Shown one piece after another: positions 3,931-12,589 of a DNA stretch of 24,000 bases. A program made the translations under genes and the position numbers. The notes beneath the pieces are model-generated. The model ran no database searches. It was not told where the DNA came from and saw only the letters and a list, made by a program, of their open reading frames with translations. Numbering within the stretch: the stretch's first letter is position 1; the number at the start of each line of letters is the position of its first letter. The stretch is from Candidatus Woesearchaeota archaeon (GTDB lineage: Archaea > Nanobdellota > Nanobdellia > Woesearchaeales > UBA9642), in contig BPGB01000011.1 of the NCBI GenBank assembly GCA_026002815.1, positions 2,280 through 26,279 on the forward strand, read 5' to 3'.

Positions 3931-6324
3931 ATGGAATTTATTAAAATAAAAGATTCATCTCCATGGATTATTAAAGAACTAGAACAATACCATCCAGATT
4001 CAGACAGGCATACACAATACTGGAGGTCTCTTAAAAAGAAGGCTATAGAAGGAGTATGGGGAGAGGATTTTAATAATGAATTCAGATTTATGCCTCCAAA
4101 ATTATGGTTTTATATTAATTTTGGAATAATACAAGATGAAGATAAAAAAACTAAAGCAAGAAAGGAAATAAAACCAAAGCTTGCTGATACAATGTGGGAA
4201 ATTTCATATGCTTGTCTTGAAGCAAGAGGTTTTTCAGGATTTGAAGAAGACCATCTCAGAACAGGAGACAGATACATATTAAAATTTTCAAAATCAAGAA
4301 CCCCAACATCAAACATAGACGAATCATTATATTTTAAACCAAATGGTACATTTAAAGATTTTGTTGAACCAAGAGAACTATTAAGGTCAAGACATGATAA
4401 ACCATATGGTTGTCCCTTATATAATAACGATGCAAAAAATCTTATTATTCTTGGTGCAAGGTCTGGTGGTAAAAGTTTTTATATAGCTGTAGCAGAATTA
4501 TTACATGAAATATTGTTTGACGGTGCAAAAAAATATACTGAAGAATCAATAAAGAATCCAACTAAAGTAGAAGTATTTCTTGGTTCAGCTATTGCTTCAA
4601 AATCAAATGAAACTGCACAGAAAATAAAAGCAGCACAAAATGCACTTGCAATAAGACAGGATTTAGGTGCATGGGGAGAATTACATGATATAGATTATGA
4701 ACCATCTCCTTTTTATAAAGATATGGTGGGAGATATTCTTGCAAATAATATGCGTTCTCCATGGAGACATGAATATGAGGAAAAAGTAAATGGAAGATGG
4801 GTAGTTTCCGGAACCAAATCAGTTTTAAAACATGGAGTATATACAAAAGAAAATTTACAAGCTGCAGCAGGTGGTAGATATACTATAATGTTTGGGGAAG
4901 AAGTGGGTCTTTGGCCAAATGTAATAATACCACACTGGTCTAATGAGGCATGTATGAGGATTGGTACAAGAAAGTTTGGGTCTGCTTTTTATGTAGGTAC
5001 AGCAGGGAATATGGAAAAAATTATAGAATCACAGGAAATATTTGAAGCTCCTGATGAATATAATATGTTGTCATATCCAAATGATTGGGAAAATATGTCA
5101 ACACAAAAAATAGGATTTTTCCTTCCGGCTTATTATACAAATTTTGATTTTAAAGATGAACATGGTAATACTGATGTAGAAGCTGCAAAAAAACATTATG
5201 AAGAATTACATGAAAAAGCCAAACAATCAAAGAATTCAGCAGCCTATGAAGGAGAATTGATGAATACTCCTATTTATCCATCACAGATGTTTATACAAAA
5301 ACAAGGTAATATATTCCCTATTGCTGAATTAAAAGACCATTTAAAATCACTTGAATATTCTGAAGCTTATAAATATGCAACTAATGTAACTCTTAAATTT
5401 GACCCAAAAAGTATTTCAGGAGTTTCATATGAACCGGATACAAAAGGTGAATTGAAACCACTTGATAGGTTTCCATTACCACAGAATGAAACAAATAGAG
5501 AAGGATGTGTAGTAATATATGAGTTTCCAATAACAGATGAAACAGGAAAAGTTCCTCCGGGATTATATATAATAGGACATGACCCTGTAGCAAAAGATGA
5601 TGTGAATGGTGATTCACTGTCTGCTATATATGTACTTAAGACCAAAAAGTATTTTCATAAATATGGTCATGATGAAATAGTTGCAACATATGTTGGAAGA
5701 CCATATGGTGGAATGGAACAGGTAAATGAAACTCTTGAAAAACTGGCTATGTTTTATGGTGCTTCTCCACGAATGATATATTTTGAAAATATGGTTGGGG
5801 AAGTAAAACCTTATTTTGAAAAGAAAAAGAAATTAATACTTCTTGCAACCCAACCACAAACTGTTCTTACCAATACCCACAAATCCCGTATGTCAAAACT
5901 TGTATATGGTTATCCAATGTCAAACCAGTATATTAAACAGGAAACATGCAGATATATAAGACAATGGTTACTTGATGAATGGGGCAAAGATGATAAAGGA
6001 AATGTTCTATTAAATCTTCACAAAATACGAGACAGAGCATTAATACAGGAATTAATTGCATTTAATATGAAGAATATGAATGCAGACAGAGTTATGGCAT
6101 TTGGAGGATGTATAATAGGGCTTGAAGAAACACATAATCAGTTTATAAATGCAATTGAAGATGCAAAAAAACCAAATTCAGTAATAAATTTTTTAAAAAG
6201 AGGAGCAGAATATTTAAAAGGTAATGAGTACTATATCCCAACCAAAACAAAAACTAAGCCTGAACAAGAAAAACAAGCTTTGGAGGAAAGAAAATGTAGA
6301 TTTCCTTTGCTCTCAAGCCAATGA
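3931..6324 (+). CDS. terL: Terminase large subunit
   Basis: 797-aa ORF. It has a Walker A-like ILGARSGGKSFYIA, a Walker B/catalytic Glu-like YTIMFGEEVG, a YVGTAGNM motif and a C-terminal nuclease-type LYIIGHDPVAKDD. It sits immediately upstream of the portal-sized gene. Confidence 0.85.
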   Translation: MEFIKIKDSSPWIIKELEQYHPDSDRHTQYWRSLKKKAIEGVWGEDFNNEFRFMPPKLWFYINFGIIQDEDKKTKARKEIKPKLADTMWEISYACLEARGFSGFEEDHLRTGDRYILKFSKSRTPTSNIDESLYFKPNGTFKDFVEPRELLRSRHDKPYGCPLYNNDAKNLIILGARSGGKSFYIAVAELLHEILFDGAKKYTEESIKNPTKVEVFLGSAIASKSNETAQKIKAAQNALAIRQDLGAWGELHDIDYEPSPFYKDMVGDILANNMRSPWRHEYEEKVNGRWVVSGTKSVLKHGVYTKENLQAAAGGRYTIMFGEEVGLWPNVIIPHWSNEACMRIGTRKFGSAFYVGTAGNMEKIIESQEIFEAPDEYNMLSYPNDWENMSTQKIGFFLPAYYTNFDFKDEHGNTDVEAAKKHYEELHEKAKQSKNSAAYEGELMNTPIYPSQMFIQKQGNIFPIAELKDHLKSLEYSEAYKYATNVTLKFDPKSISGVSYEPDTKGELKPLDRFPLPQNETNREGCVVIYEFPITDETGKVPPGLYIIGHDPVAKDDVNGDSLSAIYVLKTKKYFHKYGHDEIVATYVGRPYGGMEQVNETLEKLAMFYGASPRMIYFENMVGEVKPYFEKKKKLILLATQPQTVLTNTHKSRMSKLVYGYPMSNQYIKQETCRYIRQWLLDEWGKDDKGNVLLNLHKIRDRALIQELIAFNMKNMNADRVMAFGGCIIGLEETHNQFINAIEDAKKPNSVINFLKRGAEYLKGNEYYIPTKTKTKPEQEKQALEERKCRFPLLSSQ

Positions 6325-8746
6325 TTACTACTCAACTGAGTGGTACAGGATACAAAGTAATTATAATCTCCTTAATAATATTATAAATCAGGAGGAATTT
6401 CAGAAATTATGTGACCCTTTGAAACTTGATATGGGTAAAGACTATGTGCAGGCATTTAACCAAATGCATAATAAAATTAATGTTCTTAAAGGAGAAGAAT
6501 CAAAATTACCCTGGTCTTTTAATGTTATAGCATATTCACCTGAAGCAGCAAATGAAATAAACAGAAGAAAAACAAAAGAAATAAAAAACTATATTTCCTT
6601 TCAAATTCAAAAAGAACTATCATTAGCTCAGGCAAGGATACAACAGCAGGTTATGTTGGAAACACAACAAGTTTCACAGGAAGAAGCAGAACAGTTCTTT
6701 AAACAGAGAGTACAAGAGCTTGAAGAACAAGAAAAAGAATTCCTGAATCCTGAAGAAATAATAAATAAATACAGAAAATTCAGACTTAACGAAGAAATAG
6801 CATTAAGTAAAATCTTAATTAACCAACGTGACAGATTGAAACTAAGGCATCTCAAAAATGAATCATATGAAGCAGCACTTGTTGCAGGAATTGAAGCTAT
6901 AAAAGTAGCACCAGTAAATGGTATAGAACAAGTAGAAGTTTTAAATCCACTTGGATTAGCTTATCATAAATCTCCCGAAATACAATTCATAGAAGATGGT
7001 GATTGGGTGGTATATAAACAGGAAAAAACTATTGCTGATGTTATAGATGAATATGGTGATAGATTACATCCGGATGACCTTAATGAATTGGAAACAAGAT
7101 TGTCAAGAGTTTATGGAACTGACGCAAAAATGTATTCCAAAGATGCTTATTCTCCATCACATTGGGAAAATTTATCTAAATATAACAGAACATTTGGATT
7201 TAATGATGTACCCCATACAGGACAATACGGACAATCTGTTGCAAATTATCATGATTATTTAACAGTTTATACTTGTTATTGGAGGTCACAGAGAAAAGTA
7301 TATTTTTTATCATGGGTAGATGATTATGGTAATGAACAAATGGACATAGTATCTGAAGATTTTATAATCCCTGAAAATCATACTGAAAGACGAGTCAAAG
7401 ATGAAGTAAACAATATTACAAAAAAAATAATTCAGTGGTTGGACCCTGAAACCCAAATTGTTTATTCTCTGGAAGAAAAATGGATACCACAGATTTGGGA
7501 AGGTACAAGAATTGAAGATCATATTTATGTTGATATACAACCAGTACCCTGGATTAATACTTCAATAGAAAGACCATATGATGTAAAACTACCTATATAT
7601 GGAGCACCATATTCAGCAAAAAATGCTCCAATAACATCTTTATTTGACAGAGGAGTTCCATGGCAGAAACTTTATCTTTTTGTGATGGCAAAATGGCTGA
7701 AATTAATACAACAGGATAGAGGAGTAGTTCATACCTTTAATACTTTAATGGTAGATGAACAATTAGGGATTGATGAAACGCTCAGATATATGTTTGATAT
7801 GGGGTTTATTCCTATTAATCCTATTGCAAATGCTGAAGCAGCACAGATTTTAGGAAACACACTTAAAATGGCTGAAACAATCAACCTATCTAATTCAAAT
7901 CAGCTTTCTCAATACACCCAGATACTTGCATTCATAGAACAACAAATAGGAATTTCAATGGGAGTACCACGTGAAAGAGAAGCAAGAACAAGTCCAAATA
8001 CTAATGTTACTGATAATCAACAAGATTTGATACAATCTTCCCATATTACCCAACCAATCCTGGCACTACATAATATTATATGGGAAAATGTACTTAATGC
8101 TTTACTTAATCTGACAAAAGAAAGAATTAAAAAAGGTGCTAAAACATGGAGATTTATTTTATCAGATGAAGAAATAGCTACTATAGAAATAAGTCCTGAA
8201 AATCTTGACAACTTTGATTTTGGAGTATATGTTAAACAAAATGAAAAAGCAAGAGAAGTATTAAAGCAAGCACAATTACATGCTCAGGCTTTAATACAAA
8301 ATGATAAATTAAATCTTTCAACTTTCATAGGAATGCTTGAAACTGAAAATTTAGGTGAATTTAAACAAATGGTCCGACAAATGGAAAATGAACTTTCTCA
8401 AAGAGAATTACAATTACAACAACAGCGATTGGAAGCTCAGGCTAAACAACAGGAGAGAGAAATTGAATGGAGAGAAGACCAGCAACAACATGAAATAGCT
8501 ATGGAAGAAATGAAAGGAAATATCCAGAAAGAAATAACTGTTTTAAAAGAACAATCCAAAAACCCTGAGCAAAAAGATGATACTCTTGAACTTAAAAAAC
8601 TTGAACAAAAAGAAAAAGAACTCAAAGAAAAAATTGAGATTGAGAGGAAAAAAATTTTACAGAAACAAAAAGAATCAGATGAAAATATTAAACTTGAAAA
8701 AGAAAAACTCAAACTAAATGAAAAATTAAAAAATAAAAAATCCTAA
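6224..8746 (+). CDS. Portal protein with long charged C-terminal coiled coil
   Basis: 840-aa ORF directly after terminase, with size and position typical of a portal. The last ~120 aa are an uninterrupted E/K/Q-rich helical tract. ATG 6224 is the only ATG before ~6430, which implies a 101-nt overlap with terL. No catalytic-type motif exists for portals, so the call is positional. Confidence 0.7.
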   Translation: MSTISQPKQKLSLNKKNKLWRKENVDFLCSQANDYYSTEWYRIQSNYNLLNNIINQEEFQKLCDPLKLDMGKDYVQAFNQMHNKINVLKGEESKLPWSFNVIAYSPEAANEINRRKTKEIKNYISFQIQKELSLAQARIQQQVMLETQQVSQEEAEQFFKQRVQELEEQEKEFLNPEEIINKYRKFRLNEEIALSKILINQRDRLKLRHLKNESYEAALVAGIEAIKVAPVNGIEQVEVLNPLGLAYHKSPEIQFIEDGDWVVYKQEKTIADVIDEYGDRLHPDDLNELETRLSRVYGTDAKMYSKDAYSPSHWENLSKYNRTFGFNDVPHTGQYGQSVANYHDYLTVYTCYWRSQRKVYFLSWVDDYGNEQMDIVSEDFIIPENHTERRVKDEVNNITKKIIQWLDPETQIVYSLEEKWIPQIWEGTRIEDHIYVDIQPVPWINTSIERPYDVKLPIYGAPYSAKNAPITSLFDRGVPWQKLYLFVMAKWLKLIQQDRGVVHTFNTLMVDEQLGIDETLRYMFDMGFIPINPIANAEAAQILGNTLKMAETINLSNSNQLSQYTQILAFIEQQIGISMGVPREREARTSPNTNVTDNQQDLIQSSHITQPILALHNIIWENVLNALLNLTKERIKKGAKTWRFILSDEEIATIEISPENLDNFDFGVYVKQNEKAREVLKQAQLHAQALIQNDKLNLSTFIGMLETENLGEFKQMVRQMENELSQRELQLQQQRLEAQAKQQEREIEWREDQQQHEIAMEEMKGNIQKEITVLKEQSKNPEQKDDTLELKKLEQKEKELKEKIEIERKKILQKQKESDENIKLEKEKLKLNEKLKNKKS

Positions 8747-8850
8747 CTAAACACCAAAAAGAAAATTTAGACACATAAATAAATAATCTAAAAAACTGGT
8801 TTTATCAAAAAAATTCTTATATTTATACCAGAAATAAACTAAATCAATTA

Positions 8851-9000
8851 ATGACAGACAGAATTGCAAAACCGTTTTTGAAGTGGGCAGGTGGTAAAAC
8901 TCAGCTTATAAACACTATTGAAAATGCTTTGCCCAAAGACATTTACAGTAACAAATTCACATACATTGAGCCCTTTGTTGGAAGTGGTGCAGTTTTATAA
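8851..9000 (+). pseudogene. dam: 5' fragment of a Dam-type (D12 class) N6-adenine DNA methyltransferase gene, truncated after motif I
   Basis: Translates as [59 protein letters not shown] and EPFVGSGAV (the FxGxG SAM-binding motif) are the hallmark N-terminal motifs of Dam-family enzymes. The reading frame ends at the IS left end, and no DPPY-type catalytic half follows anywhere downstream. Confidence 0.8.
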
Positions 9001-9014
9001 AACGGAGCGTAAAA

Positions 9015-9037
9015 CCCACAAATCTTTAGTTTGTGGG
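9015..9037 (+). repeat. IS200/IS605 left-end subterminal hairpin
   Basis: CCCACAAA-TCTTTAG-TTTGTGGG: a perfect 8-bp stem with a 7-nt loop, ~15 nt inside the dam/IS junction. It has the same loop and the same first four stem pairs as the hairpin at 10110-10132. Confidence 0.7.
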
Positions 9038-9047
9038 ATGTAAGCGA

Positions 9048-9134
9048 CTAGCCCTGATTGAGAATATACTCACGAATGGTATCAGGAGAAGCCTCACCAA
9101 TTGAGCAAACGAAATAACCATCTGAACGAAACTT
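9048..9134 (-). pseudogene. tnpA: 3' remnant of IS200-type Y1 transposase gene
   Basis: The minus strand reads (stop)KFRSDGYFVCSIGEASPDTIREYILNQG*. The GYFV.S.G....I..YI.NQ pattern is the conserved C-terminal end of IS200/IS605 TnpA. An in-frame TAA (9135-9137) cuts it off upstream, so only 28 codons remain. Confidence 0.65.
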
Positions 9135-9144
9135 TTACAAAAAC

Positions 9145-9175
9145 TTGAAATATGTGTGAATAATTAGTATCTTTG
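9145..9175 (+). promoter_or_regulatory. Bacteroidota-type promoter candidate for the endonuclease gene (TTG, 20-nt spacer, TAtcTTTG)
   Basis: TTG at 9145-9147 and TATCTTTG at 9168-9175 fit the -33 TTTG / -7 TAnnTTTG architecture. The ATG at 9180 falls where the transcription start would be, which suggests a leaderless mRNA. Confidence 0.4.
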
Positions 9176-9179
9176 CATT

Positions 9180-9887
9180 ATGAAAAATGAAGTTTACATA
9201 TACGGTTTAAAGTGTCCTGAAAAGGGTGTTATTAGGTATATCGGCAAAAGCAAAAACCCCAAAGCAAGATACCATACACATTTAAGTCATTCCAAAGCAG
9301 AAAGATATGATAACATTCATCTTTACAGGTGGATTGCTAAACTTTTAAGAAACGAGTTAAAACCTGAATTAATCATATTGGATAGTTGTAGTAACACAGA
9401 TTGGAAGGAGAAAGAGAAAGAATGGATTAATAAATATGGATTAGACAATTTGCTGAATATGAATGAAGGTGGGATTGAACCGCCAGATAATACAGGTTTT
9501 AGATGGTCAGAAGAACAAAAAGCAAATCATTCATCACATAAAAGAAAAGGTAAACCACAATGGACGAATATTCCGCATCCACTTTTAGGCAAAGAACATC
9601 CTGCTAAAGGTCAAAAACGTTCTAAAGAGTTTTGCGAATTAATGAAAAAACAAAGATTAGAAAACAATGGTATGAAAGGTGTAAAACTTTCTAAAGAACG
9701 TATAGAACAGATTAAAGAGGTTAATTCAAAGAGGGTGGCTCTACTTGATGATAACGGAAACATACAAAAAGAATATAATTCTCAATCAGAAGCGGCACAG
9801 GATTTAGGTTTACACCATTCGGCAATAGGGAGAGTTTGTAAAGGAGAATACAAACATACAAAAGGACATAAGTTTAAATGGATATGA
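9180..9887 (+). CDS. GIY-YIG homing endonuclease with NUMOD3-like repeats and a C-terminal NUMOD1/IENR1-type helix-turn-helix
   Basis: 235-aa intact ORF. GIY-YIG motifs are VYIYGL ... IRYIGKS ... KARYHTH ... EKEWI ... LLNMNEGG. The middle region has GKxHxxKGxKxS-type NUMOD3 repeats (LLGKEHPAKGQKRSKE, GMKGVKLSKERIEQIK). The C-terminus YNSQSEAAQDLGLHHSAIGRVCKGEYKHTKGHKFKW is a typical HEG DNA-binding HTH. Confidence 0.85.
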   Translation: MKNEVYIYGLKCPEKGVIRYIGKSKNPKARYHTHLSHSKAERYDNIHLYRWIAKLLRNELKPELIILDSCSNTDWKEKEKEWINKYGLDNLLNMNEGGIEPPDNTGFRWSEEQKANHSSHKRKGKPQWTNIPHPLLGKEHPAKGQKRSKEFCELMKKQRLENNGMKGVKLSKERIEQIKEVNSKRVALLDDNGNIQKEYNSQSEAAQDLGLHHSAIGRVCKGEYKHTKGHKFKWI

Positions 9888-10135
9888 ATAGCCCCAAAAC
9901 TTGTAATGTGTGTGGATGGATAAATCAAGATTTAAATCTTTCGGTTCGTGAATGGACTTGCAAAAATGGACATAAATTAGACCGTGATTTAAATGCAGCA
10001 AAGGTCATTCTGAAAGAAGGATTGAAAATAATATCGGGTGGGACGCTCGATAACACGGATGGAGATGGTGTAAGAAGTAGTAATACTCAACTATCTGCGA
10101 AGTCCGAAGCCCATTTGTCTTTAGCAAATGGGTAG
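9878..10135 (+). pseudogene. tnpB: 3' remnant of tnpB (zinc-ribbon plus last RuvC motif only)
   Basis: Reads ..SPKTCNVCGWINQDLNLSVREWTCKNGHKLDRDLNAAKVILKEG...SAKSEAH..*. The C..CG...L.LS.R.W.C......DRD.NAA pattern is the TnpB/OrfB zinc-ribbon and RuvC-III region. Stops lie immediately upstream in frame, the second Cys pair is incomplete (CKNGH), and about 300 N-terminal codons are missing. Confidence 0.8.
10110..10132 (+). repeat. IS200/IS605 right-end subterminal hairpin
   Basis: CCCATTTG-TCTTTAG-CAAATGGG: an 8-bp stem with a loop identical to the left-end hairpin. It overlaps the last codons of the tnpB remnant, as expected for an IS605-type right end. Confidence 0.7.
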
Positions 10136-10156
10136 TTCACTTAAACCTTAAAAACA

Positions 10157-12589
10157 GTGGGGGGTAAATTAAAATACACAAACAATGGTATAGAAAGAAT
10201 CAGTTCTACCAATAGAAAATTCTTTTATCCATATAAAACAATTCAAAATAATAAAGAAAGCCCTGTTAATTTTACTGGATATCTTAAAGGCTCTTCTACA
10301 GTTTCAAATCCATATAATTTAATTCCTTCACATACCATCACTACTACCAACATGGCAGGTCCTATTCTTGCTAATGGACAACTTTTATTACCAAATACCG
10401 GAGATTATTATTTTGAAAAAATTCCTGTAGTAGAAAAAAGACTATTTCAAAAAGGAGGAACAATAGATACACTCTTTGTATCTAATCCCAAGGACTCAAG
10501 GTTAAAGGCTTATAAAGATAGTTTAATGTTGTATAATGCTAGTAAAGAATATGAAGGTAAATTACCTGTAATATCAGTTGAAGCTGTCAGATATATTATG
10601 AGACCCGGACAACCAAACTCTGAATATTATTATAATAAAGTTGCAACTTTACCAAATAATGATCCTATTGGTTATTATGTAGAAAAACCAACTCCATATA
10701 TTACAAATTATTATCCAAAACATGCAAAACCAAAACAACCAGTAGTTTATAAACCTAACCATTTAGAACTTCAAAAACTTTCCACACTTCCATCCAATCC
10801 AATTTTTAACCCCCCTAACCCTCAACCAAAATCCATAATACCCCCAAGAACTAGTATAAACTGGGAAACTGAAAAGAGCAATAGAAAATACTATACAAAA
10901 AGTTTTGACCCAAAATCTGAAATTGAAAAATTATGGAATCCTGTTATTAAAAGAACCAATGAATTAAGATTAAAACATCCCCCTGCTATTACAAAAAAAT
11001 GTGATTCAAGATATAAATATAATGATTGTCCGGTATTTAAAGAAGAAAGAATAAAAAAATTTAAAAACAAATATCAAAGTGGTGGTTATCAGTGGTCAAC
11101 AGAAGACCCAGAGAATTATCGGCAACCATTAATTATTCCAGATGCAGTTGTGATTCCAACTGATGTATTAAAACCTTCTATAAAGGACTATTCAATAACA
11201 CAGGACTATCCAATAACACATAATGAATATCCTCCTATACAACATCCTGGATATATTAAGCAATTACCAAAAGGAAGTCTTCTTAAAAAATTTCTGTTTG
11301 CTCCTCTTGCAACATCATTAGGAGTAAAAGAAGGAAATATTCCAGATATGTTTCTAAGTTTGCCTGCTCATACTGGAGCTGCAGCAATAGAAACAGCAAA
11401 AAATATATCACATCCAATAAGAACTATAAAAACTCTGGGAAAAGCAGGAATAAATTTTATAACAGACTTATCTGGGGAACAAAATCCTTATCCTGGAAGT
11501 ACTTCTAAAGCTCTTGATATTATACTTGATGCATTAGGTACAGTACCATTATCACCAGGACGTCAACTGACAAGTAAATTAATAGAATTACCAAAAAATG
11601 AATTACGTGAACTTGCTTACACAATTGGGACACAATCAGAACATCCATATCGATCTACAGAACAGATAATAAGAGGTATAAAAGATTATAAAGATAACAT
11701 CAAACGAAGATTACACAATGAACCACCAGAATATTATGATCTTAATTACACAGGTGATTACTCAGGACGTGTGGATCTTTTAAAAGCATATTTAAAACAA
11801 GACTATACAGGTCTTACACCATCAAATCTCCCACTTTCTACATATCAAGAACTAATTCAGGGGAAAACTCCATACATGAAATTTAAATTACCATTATATG
11901 ATGATAGCCCAGCAAATTTATTAGAACTTGAAATAAGGACTCCATCAAAAGACCTTAATATTTTTCAACAGCTTAAAACTATAGAAGAAGAAATTAAAAA
12001 AAAGGGAAGATTTGAAGCAGGTGTGGATGTGGGTCTACTTCCACCAGAAACTAAAGCTTATTTAAGTAACTATCGTGCACCAACATCATTTAACATTGCA
12101 GGACATGAAATATTAATAATACCAGGGGGAAAATTAGGACATAAATTAATATTTACTGACCACTGGGGGTTCATAAATGAAGTTAAAAGACCTGGATTTC
12201 CAAAAGGAAATTATATAAGGAAATGGAGGGTGAACAGTAATGATATAGGTAAACCAATTGTACCTGCCTTTCTGCAGCCAAAATTAATGGGAATGATAGG
12301 AAAACCATTTATACTTCAAAATGAGATAGATTTGGCACTTCCAAAAACTGTAGCTGGTAAAAAAAGACTGGCTCAAGATATTGGTGGATTATCTATGTTA
12401 AGAAGAATAGACAAAAGAATATATGACTCGAAAAAAAGTATGGTGCCAGAAAAGGTATTAGGAGAAACCGAAATGGATGTATTAAATTTAATGGACCAAT
12501 TAAGAGACAAAATTAGTAAAACACACTATAATTTCAAACATGGTGGTAAATATACTCGAATATCACCAAAGAAAAATAAGAAAATATAA
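10157..12589 (+). CDS. Large virion-associated protein of unknown function (Pro-rich segment; recurring aromatic-x-x-GG motif); possible internal/ejected protein
   Basis: 810-aa ORF. The frame opens at 10145, right at the IS right end. Its only early start is GTG 10157, and the first ATG is ~62 codons further in. The Pro-rich tract is KPKQPVVYKPN...NPIFNPPNPQPKSIIPP. The motifs FQKGG, YQSGG and FKHGG recur. No enzymatic motif recognised. Confidence 0.55.
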   Translation: MGGKLKYTNNGIERISSTNRKFFYPYKTIQNNKESPVNFTGYLKGSSTVSNPYNLIPSHTITTTNMAGPILANGQLLLPNTGDYYFEKIPVVEKRLFQKGGTIDTLFVSNPKDSRLKAYKDSLMLYNASKEYEGKLPVISVEAVRYIMRPGQPNSEYYYNKVATLPNNDPIGYYVEKPTPYITNYYPKHAKPKQPVVYKPNHLELQKLSTLPSNPIFNPPNPQPKSIIPPRTSINWETEKSNRKYYTKSFDPKSEIEKLWNPVIKRTNELRLKHPPAITKKCDSRYKYNDCPVFKEERIKKFKNKYQSGGYQWSTEDPENYRQPLIIPDAVVIPTDVLKPSIKDYSITQDYPITHNEYPPIQHPGYIKQLPKGSLLKKFLFAPLATSLGVKEGNIPDMFLSLPAHTGAAAIETAKNISHPIRTIKTLGKAGINFITDLSGEQNPYPGSTSKALDIILDALGTVPLSPGRQLTSKLIELPKNELRELAYTIGTQSEHPYRSTEQIIRGIKDYKDNIKRRLHNEPPEYYDLNYTGDYSGRVDLLKAYLKQDYTGLTPSNLPLSTYQELIQGKTPYMKFKLPLYDDSPANLLELEIRTPSKDLNIFQQLKTIEEEIKKKGRFEAGVDVGLLPPETKAYLSNYRAPTSFNIAGHEILIIPGGKLGHKLIFTDHWGFINEVKRPGFPKGNYIRKWRVNSNDIGKPIVPAFLQPKLMGMIGKPFILQNEIDLALPKTVAGKKRLAQDIGGLSMLRRIDKRIYDSKKSMVPEKVLGETEMDVLNLMDQLRDKISKTHYNFKHGGKYTRISPKKNKKI

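Follow-up and report, generated by a model that had tools for sequence, protein, structure and literature searches.

A GIY-YIG homing endonuclease gene nested in a gutted IS200/IS605 element of a crAss-like phage, and its recurrence at the same tnpB codons in other insertion sequences

The DNA described here is a stretch of 24,000 nucleotides, called the window in the following, from contig BPGB01000011.1 of an assembly that is labelled Candidatus Woesearchaeota archaeon (GCA_026002815.1). Positions 8999-10140 of the window are a non-autonomous derivative (1,142 bp) of an insertion sequence (IS) of the IS200/IS605 type. An intact homing endonuclease gene (HEG) of the GIY-YIG family stands between remnants of the transposase gene tnpA and of the nuclease gene tnpB, and the whole element lies in a truncated dam gene. 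The original prediction, made from the nucleotide sequence without database searches, had proposed exactly this nesting of a HEG in a gutted IS605 element of divergent layout, and an intact parent IS in locus L216 now anchors it. Since relatives of the endonuclease sit at the same spot of tnpB in many other sequences, they probably specialise in invading transposons.

The element begins with the IS left end (LE; 8999..9047, plus strand), directly 3' of the target pentanucleotide TTTAT (8994..8998, plus strand), which is predicted to be the transposon-associated motif (TAM). The LE is 100% identical to that of the intact copies L213-L216 and L220 and contains a perfect subterminal hairpin at 9015-9037 (CCCACAAA-TCTTTAG-TTTGTGGG; 8-bp stem, 7-nt loop). 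It is followed on the minus strand by a tnpA remnant (9048..9125), which consists of the stop codon and the last 25 codons of a Y1 transposase (SDGYFVCSIGEASPDTIREYILNQG, then the stop) and was assigned by Pfam Y1_Tnp and by comparison with intact tnpA. The minus strand of 9048-9134 matches positions 98-121 of the 121 positions of Y1_Tnp (E 2.3e-4), at 21.7 bits and thus slightly below the Pfam cut-off of 23 bits for this family. The nucleotide identity to intact tnpA is 100% up to 9125, and the sequences diverge beyond. The earlier assignment of this piece to the C-terminal end of TnpA therefore holds, with a remnant of 25 instead of 28 codons, the residues KFR being part of the inserted cassette.

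The endonuclease gene (9180..9887, plus strand) is an intact, free-standing gene for a GIY-YIG protein of 235 aa. Its stop codon overlaps the ATG of the tnpB 3' stub as ATGA (9884-9887), and true tnpB sequence starts at 9895. The stub ORF (open reading frame; 9884..10135, plus strand, 83 codons) encodes the Zn ribbon and the RuvC-III 'DRD' motif. The tail from 9878 to 10135 is recognised by Pfam Cas12f1-like_TNB (E 2.3e-9) and aligns to residues 316-401 of a phage TnpB of 401 aa. The last 246 nt of the parent IS (9895..10140, plus strand), comprising the tnpB 3' end and the right end (RE) and ending in ...GGGTAGTTCAC, are 100% identical to L098 and L216. The RE contains a second perfect hairpin at 10110-10132 (CCCATTTG-TCTTTAG-CAAATGGG), again with an 8-bp stem and the same 7-nt loop as in the LE; compensatory changes were observed at 6 of its 8 pairs among 44 sequences. 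Both hairpins, the endonuclease and the zinc-ribbon/RuvC-III tail had been read correctly from the letters, and the Pfam searches that had been proposed as a check recovered the Dam fragment, the tnpA end, the endonuclease and the TnpB tail.

These features agree with an origin from the IS200/IS605 group. The ends carry subterminal hairpins and no terminal inverted repeats. The insertion lies 3' of TTTAT without target duplication, and right flanks differ among insertions without repeating the left flank. Only the last 25 codons of tnpA remain, and the element therefore cannot be autonomous. Likewise, no intact TnpB is encoded, as only residues ~316-401 with the Zn ribbon and RuvC-III are left and RuvC-I and RuvC-II are gone. 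The element does not have the short, non-coding build of palindrome-associated transposable elements (PATEs) or miniature inverted-repeat transposable elements, given its length and its intact gene. In characterised IS605 elements, the region equivalent to 9895..10140 encodes the scaffold of the guide RNA (omega RNA or reRNA, right-end-derived RNA), and by analogy it may have this role here. By its position, the right flank TTAAACCTTAAAAACAGTGG (10141..10160, plus strand), which occurs once in the window, would then supply the guide segment of an omega RNA that reads through the RE. When the 250-nt tail was folded by consensus in order to delimit the omega RNA, the RE hairpin alone was recovered; inner hairpins with covariation are visible by eye in the alignment.

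The parent IS was identified by scanning IMG/VR for the right-end motif TCTTTAG-N5-GGGTAGTTCAC, which returned at least 120 contigs. In 47 of them a full tnpB adjoins the motif, six have short stubs that start at residues 343-361, and many have no tnpB. An exact scan for the left end gave 12 contigs. Locus L216 holds a complete IS of 1,749 bp with the order TTTAT, LE, tnpA (137 aa, minus strand), intergenic region, tnpB (~400 aa, GTG start) and RE. The same insertion is present in L213 and L215, intact copies lie at other sites in L214 and L220, and L098 contains the right half. The window is 100% identical to the L216-type IS from TTTAT and the LE (8994) to 9125, and again from 9895 to 10140. 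Between these flanks, a cassette of 769 bp (9126-9894) stands in place of 1,370 bp of the IS interior, which comprised the greater part of tnpA, a portion of the intergenic region and the first ~315 codons of tnpB. Chance is excluded, because an intact IS elsewhere matches both flanks at 100% identity. Furthermore, ten independent insertions, the one in the window and nine others with different flanks, all have TTTAT directly before the LE. By analogy with published IS605 elements, this target is predicted to equal the TAM.

It had been assumed that the 5' parts of both genes and the region between them were simply replaced. The interior of tnpA and tnpB is indeed gone; the 5' part of the cassette (9126..9179, plus strand) is itself a diverged copy of the IS family's tnpB promoter, as revealed by alignment to the L216 intergenic region. 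It contains a -33-like TTG (9145-9147) and a -7-like TATCTTTG (9168-9175), together with a sigma-70-like match at 9145-9173; the -33/-7 reading follows the Bacteroidota promoter consensus. The window reads ACGAAACTTTTACAAAAACTTG...TAGTATCTTTG...ATG and L216 reads ACGGAACTTTTACAAAACTTG...TAGTATATTTG...GTG. Because this promoter is only a diverged homologue of that of the L216 IS, the cassette was derived from another member of this family, whose promoter it brought along, and the identity of the flanks shows that it entered the L216 type of IS recently. Moreover, the promoter region 9140-9161 (AAAACTTGAAATATGTGTGAAT) resembles the start of the stub at 9896-9917 (AAAACTTGTAATGTGTGTGGAT) at 19 of 22 positions. 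The same likeness is present in L088 (2962-2985; 21/23, counted by hand). The upstream motif 'AAAACTTG...' was also considered as a simple target-site duplication, and this was rejected because the motif coincides, at least in part, with the -33 region of the tnpB promoter of this IS family. The 14 nt that follow it are nearer to the stub start than to the tnpB promoter. Three origins are conceivable for the copy of the stub start in the promoter: an autoregulatory operator mimicking the homing site, a remnant of the original insertion, or a chance likeness on a promoter element.

The endonuclease is an ordinary member of the I-TevI-like GIY-YIG/NUMOD enzymes. Pfam GIY-YIG (PF01541) is matched with E 5.9e-7, over the cut-off, and I-HmuI_NUMOD-like (PF22083) with E 6e-10. 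The catalytic domain (about residues 1-98) is joined through a NUMOD-like linker to a C-terminal DNA-binding domain with an I-HmuI-like helix-turn-helix, and residues 155-234 match residues 92-170 of I-HmuI (PDB 1u3e, E 8.6e-5). In an alignment of 18 homologues, Y8, Y20, R30, H34, E79 and N93 are invariant, and these residues correspond to the catalytic residues of I-TevI. The homologues fall into 50 clusters, of which the closest is 91% identical; nearly all are unnamed or called 'group I intron endonuclease' in their sources. A group I intron or IStron around the gene was rejected, as an Rfam scan of 8500-10600 (E<=1) gave no intron family. A second type of HEG, represented by P0044 (L002) and also present in L090, L091 and P0045, has in common with the window protein the C-terminal 117 residues (119-235; 63% identity), while the GIY-YIG domains of type 1 and type 2 are unrelated in sequence. 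In P0045, the first 16 residues are those of a type-1 enzyme and are followed by a type-2 catalytic domain; P0045 is therefore recombinant. In-frame fusions of a HEG with the Zn-ribbon stub of TnpB occur in L080 (607-1566), P0028 and P0045.

The genomic surroundings of homologues of the endonuclease were fetched by exact look-ups and profile-based scans, and the loci were scored by tblastn against the HEG, a full TnpB (from Parabacteroides phage PF672P2, L001) and TnpA. Wherever the HEG product is at least ~47% identical, or its C-terminal domain at least ~60%, a TnpB fragment from residues ~313-320 adjoins it, and this applies to every locus. The collection comprises ~20 non-redundant loci (the window, L002, L004, L008, L058/59, L076-L078, L080-L084, L087-L091 and L236, together with P0028 and P0045). 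None of the 15 loci with distant homologues (L061-L075, 24-45% identity) has an adjacent TnpB fragment; the only trace of TnpB among them is a short piece in L065, ~1 kb upstream and on the opposite strand. As a separate observation, L152 and L205 contain a distant GIY-YIG ORF (29% identity, N-terminal domain) that ends ~160 nt before an RE motif of the same type, with no detectable tnpB stub.

The right junction is nearly invariant. Measured in 14 loci, the spacing between the HEG stop and the Lys codon of KTCxxCG ranges from -2 to +11 nt, and the retained tnpB starts at the (P)SS codons before this Lys, both with forward type-1 HEGs and with the inverted type-2 HEG of L002. In intact tnpB of the L216 type, codons ~295-335 include ...AATCGCTTTTACCCCTCAAGCAAAACTTGTAATGTGTGTGGATGG.... 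At least five IS backbones have the junction between PSS and KTCxxCG; two unrelated catalytic domains are represented among the HEGs, and both orientations occur, the type-2 HEG being forward in L090 and inverted in L002. Type-1 and type-2 HEGs, with their unrelated GIY-YIG domains, sit at one and the same place in tnpB, and the association thus goes with the DNA-binding domain. Moreover, an inverted copy cannot stem from a forward copy by homologous exchange. Among the backbones, tnpA and tnpB are divergent in the window, L008 and L077 and co-directional in L090, whereas L004, L236 and L089 are tnpB-only and have a different RE; the ends of the backbones differ, too. The same tnpB codons border the HEG in ~20 loci, and an intact HEG-free tnpB exists that is 100% identical in the flanks.

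The left side is variable. The window retains the tail of 25 tnpA codons, and tnpA is nearly complete in L008, L077, L078 and L080. The left junction TTTTTTAGAC followed directly by TAA[A/T]ACTTG is common to L008, L078 and L080 and also occurs in L059, L081 and L087, whose available sequences cover only part of tnpA; read codon by codon in L008, it takes the place of the tnpA start codon. In L004, L090 and L236, tnpB codons 1 to ~44-65 are present on the left side, and in L090 and L236 the end of this 5' fragment overlaps the HEG start as ATGA. L089 has a tnpB N-terminal ORF of 104 codons, of which ~90 align to TnpB. Here, ~2.5 kb with small unrelated ORFs (468-2945) separate the tnpB fragment from the HEG, and they may be DNA that was carried in with it. 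L088 has a nearly full tnpB (codons 1-358), then the HEG and then a duplicated stub.

The histories of HEG and tnpB stub are uncoupled. Their pairwise identities are only weakly correlated (Spearman 0.22). For instance, HEG and stub identities are 88% and 37% for L004/L078 and 89% and 53% for L008/L080, with the reverse for L008/L058 (63% and 92%) and window/L083 (68% and 88%). Four stubs are nearer to intact tnpB genes than to the stub of any other HEG-bearing locus (window 100%, L083 94.7%, L076 86.8%, L082 79.5%). Furthermore, L058 and L059 differ at 10 of 892 nt, and nine of these differences cluster within 22 nt, on the codons for S-K-T-C-x-x-C-N right after the HEG stop, a pattern that local break repair or variation of the target site would give. 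Composites that transpose as units were looked for, and no second genomic site was found; P0044 is present in 24 contigs and P0032 in 10, at one site each.

A second endonuclease gene (259 aa, NUMOD3 repeats, N-terminus MxNKRKYHYIY) was observed inside tnpA in L088 (702-1481) and L219 (9068-9844). It splits tnpA of L088 cleanly between codons 106 and 107, and in L219 it follows the tnpA tail from about codon 109; a single IS in L088 thus harbours two distinct endonuclease genes, the first within tnpA and the second within tnpB. The left junction of the window (9125/9126, tnpA codon ~112) lies within ~15 nt of this tnpA-specific insertion site. In L179 (1420-1500), an endonuclease-free IS with intact tnpB, an independent tnpA deletion ends at codon 113, and tnpA around codons ~112-113 may be a hot spot of breakage. 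L162 (595-877) and L178 (856-1136) contain HEG-less, PATE-like derivatives of the same IS of ~285 bp, in which the LE and part of the tnpA tail are fused directly to the last ~190 nt before the RE. The right end of the IS in L088 is followed directly by six to seven copies of a tandem repeat of ACAGTAAGGA (3975-4055) and, from 4056 onward, by a DNA methyltransferase gene with a DPPY motif, which is a second case of this IS family beside a methylase gene.

As judged from positions in the sequences compared, we consider it rather likely that the endonuclease belongs to a HEG lineage whose homing site is tnpB itself. The idea that the enzyme uses the IS as its homing site was one of two readings offered originally, and the recurrence, the junction and the uncoupled identities give it strong comparative support. 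The element, inserted 3' of TTTAT in a phage dam gene, has had its interior swapped for a HEG cassette with a tnpB-type promoter. According to this reading, the C-terminal DNA-binding domain would recognise intact tnpB around the codons for ...F-Y-P-S-S and K-T-C-x-x-C-G, and the endonuclease would make a double-strand break at that site. Repair of the cut IS would then copy the HEG-bearing allele into it. On the 3' side, repair could use the homology in the tnpB tail and the RE, which would give the fixed right junction; on the 5' side, it could proceed by whatever homology or microhomology is available, so that left junctions would vary and the 5' part of tnpB would be lost. The deletions and the collateral DNA of L089 would be explained by the dependence of left-side repair on the homology that the donor offers. 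Because the insertion splits the recognition site, an invaded element would be immune to further cutting. Moreover, the LE, the RE and the ~250-nt guide-RNA region are kept, and the element is therefore a potential substrate for TnpA and TnpB in trans; intact IS copies, a possible source of both proteins, are common in phage contigs. The other reading offered originally, an IS-end-bounded cassette that TnpA could move in trans, likewise remains plausible, since both ends are 100% intact in the window; no composite copy at a second genomic site was found.

Several points weigh against tnpB as the homing site. The sample of HEG loci is limited to what a pattern-based retrieval returned, and the recognition site is deduced from the position of the HEGs. 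A related pair of genomes with an intact and a HEG-bearing IS at the same site was not found, nor was a simple insertion allele, with a complete tnpB 5' part, HEG and stub, present among the loci. L088 is nearest to such an allele, and its duplicated stub is not explained by the simple model. A hyper-conserved stretch is the usual hallmark of HEG targets; here, the junction is no better conserved in nucleotides than tnpB as a whole (mean ~0.70 in 37 intact genes). Finally, the retained ~250 nt are near the length of the published omega-RNA scaffold, and selection on the RNA could help to fix the boundary.

Some of these points suit a different history, in which one ancestral IS derivative caught a HEG beside a tnpB tail and spread as a non-autonomous IS with TnpA supplied in trans and occasional recombination with intact copies, the true target of the enzyme lying elsewhere, for instance in phage genes. 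The abundance of the parent IS family in viral contigs (at least 120 with the RE, 47 with full tnpB), the 100% intact LE and RE in the window, a tail length of ~250 nt that fits the preservation of a guide-RNA gene and the absence of hyper-conservation at the junction are in line with it. However, one ancestral junction cannot give the multi-backbone pattern, because the HEG occurs at the same codons across different ends and layouts, in an inverted copy and with a second, unrelated catalytic domain. Identical HEG proteins, each confined to one genomic site (24 and 10 contigs), show no sign of composite transposition, and the flanks in the window are identical to the intact IS up to the edges of the cassette. 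Thus, this history appears unlikely. Still less can be said for one-off decay, in which an unrelated free-standing phage endonuclease gene landed by chance, without any specificity, in a dead copy of the IS. The phage is a database singleton, and dam is damaged beyond the IS insertion, as this view would allow. However, the junction recurs in ~20 independent loci, which refutes it, and compared with intact copies the flanks of the IS have not decayed at all; we regard it as having almost no probability.

It could also be considered that the endonuclease, the tnpB tail and the guide-RNA region cooperate, the GIY-YIG enzyme being tethered or guided by omega RNA via the Zn-ribbon/C-terminal fragment of TnpB, which would replace RuvC. 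The stub ORF is open in 13 of 13 complete cases, it often starts at the ATGA overlap with the HEG stop (window 9884-9887, L008, L078, L088), and in-frame fusions of HEG and stub exist (L080, P0028, P0045). However, the stub in the window is 100% identical to intact tnpB, and its open frame therefore needs no selection. The WED, REC and RuvC-I/II parts, which bind omega RNA in published TnpB structures, are missing from the stub, the HEG product has a complete DNA-binding domain of its own, and the HEG of L002 points in the direction opposite to its stub. Cooperation is thus very improbable. The same low probability is given to a previously unseen RNA-associated system, in which the GIY-YIG domain displaces RuvC of TnpB and uses omega RNA, or a trans-acting TnpB bound to omega RNA, to choose or reach its targets. 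In a less radical version, two lineages of endonucleases, specialised on tnpB and on tnpA respectively, could form a guild of hyperparasites that drives the decay of IS605 elements in phages and yields non-autonomous derivatives.

The window belongs to a distant crAss-like phage. Its 840-aa ORF at 6224-8746 encodes a portal protein with at most 27% identity to crAss-family portals, and the ORF at 14005-15537 matches Crass_capsid. The neighbouring 810-aa protein has an identical entry in a metagenome-assembled genome at NCBI that is labelled Candidatus Woesearchaeota (KatS3mg002). Because the portal and major capsid genes are crAss-like, this label is most likely a binning error, by which a phage contig was binned with an archaeon. 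No close relative of the phage was present in the collections searched, which leaves it as a singleton in the databases: the only close match of the 810-aa protein is itself, neither the portal protein nor the dam fragment is on record by exact look-up, and in INPHARED and IMG/VR the portal has no relative above 27% identity. An intact IS with no HEG was found in L216, as had been sought; no IS-free or endonuclease-free allele of the phage itself was recovered. L003, a contig from Logan DRR290133, is an independent assembly of the same phage. It starts at window position ~9058, inside the tnpA tail and thus within a stretch common to intact IS copies, which may for this reason co-occur in that sample.

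The dam fragment (8851..9000, plus strand) comprises 49 codons of the N-terminus of a Dam-family (D12 class) N6-adenine methyltransferase, followed by a stop codon that was created at the IS junction. Pfam MethyltransfD12 is matched with E 9.4e-10 at profile positions 1-34 of 253, in agreement with what had been proposed for this piece. The FxGxG motif for S-adenosylmethionine binding and the catalytic (D/N)PP(Y/F) motif do not occur together in one ORF, which identifies it as a gene fragment; the remainder of dam is absent, and no DPPY-type motif was found in a plausible ORF or frame anywhere in the window. The IS sits after GTT TTA T, in codons 48-50 of the Dam-type gene. The imagined empty site reads ...GAVLFKP followed by a stop, and dam was therefore truncated independently of the IS. 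Either a later deletion that started a few bases past the RE removed the 3' part, or the IS entered a pre-existing fragment. Among the fetched loci, nothing resembled the dam fragment or the right flank except one unrelated Dam N-terminus in L109.

Homing endonucleases invade conserved housekeeping genes, introns and inteins, and TnpB is an RNA-guided 'homing' nuclease and the ancestor of Cas12. Here, a whole HEG lineage appears to have adopted the nuclease gene of another selfish element as its home. A protein-guided endonuclease that knocks out tnpB and spares the IS ends and the guide-RNA region would be a clear case of hyperparasitism among mobile elements. If true, this would provide a concrete mechanism for the inactivation of IS200/IS605 elements and for the origin of non-autonomous derivatives. 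It would also add a player to phage-phage competition, since the IS family is common in phage genomes, and supply natural enzymes with a predictable target of ~30 bp inside tnpB. Moreover, short 'TnpB' or 'TnpA' ORFs beside endonuclease genes would be the scars of such events and a warning to annotators. Literature searches for GIY-YIG enzymes with TnpB or IS605, crAss-like phages with TnpB, and HEGs with tnpB genes retrieved no description of the arrangement in the searchable literature, which agrees with the original remark that no HEG-in-IS605 chimera was known. The carrier is an ordinary IS605-group element in non-autonomous form; the recurrent, position-specific combination of HEG and tnpB is the part that was not found described.

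The endonuclease resembles free-standing phage GIY-YIG HEGs of the I-TevI/I-BmoI type and the T4 Seg and Mob enzymes, with the same arrangement of GIY-YIG domain, NUMOD-like linker and helix-turn-helix, no intron, and the same polymorphism of presence and absence at a fixed position of a host gene. I-TevI represses its own expression via a target-like sequence in its promoter, to which the possible target-like sequence in the promoter described here can be likened. However, the invaded gene is tnpB, which encodes an RNA-guided nuclease of a mobile element, and not a cellular or phage housekeeping gene, and the invasion goes along with the loss of the 5' three-quarters of tnpB. With the IS605 group (IS605, IS608, ISDra2) and PATEs, the element has in common the subterminal hairpins, the lack of inverted repeats and the fixed pentanucleotide target, and its parent also has the divergent tnpA/tnpB layout and the guide-RNA region over the tnpB 3' end. 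In contrast to these elements, the interior codes for a protein-only homing endonuclease in place of transposase and TnpB, and unlike PATEs the element is coding and 1.14 kb long. The nearest published chimeras are IStrons (CdISt1/CboIStron), built the other way round. They likewise join an IS200/IS605-type element to a second selfish class that is classically tied to homing endonucleases, the group I intron. In IStrons, TnpB takes the endonuclease's place inside the intron, whereas here, where Rfam detects no ribozyme, the endonuclease takes the place of TnpB inside the IS. TnpB itself is an IS-encoded nuclease that promotes copying of its carrier via break-induced recombination, being guided by RNA to cut the empty donor site. 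If tnpB is the homing site, the GIY-YIG enzyme would likewise be an IS-internal nuclease that aids the copying of its carrier; unlike TnpB, it would be protein-guided, cut the intact IS and parasitise the IS rather than maintain it.

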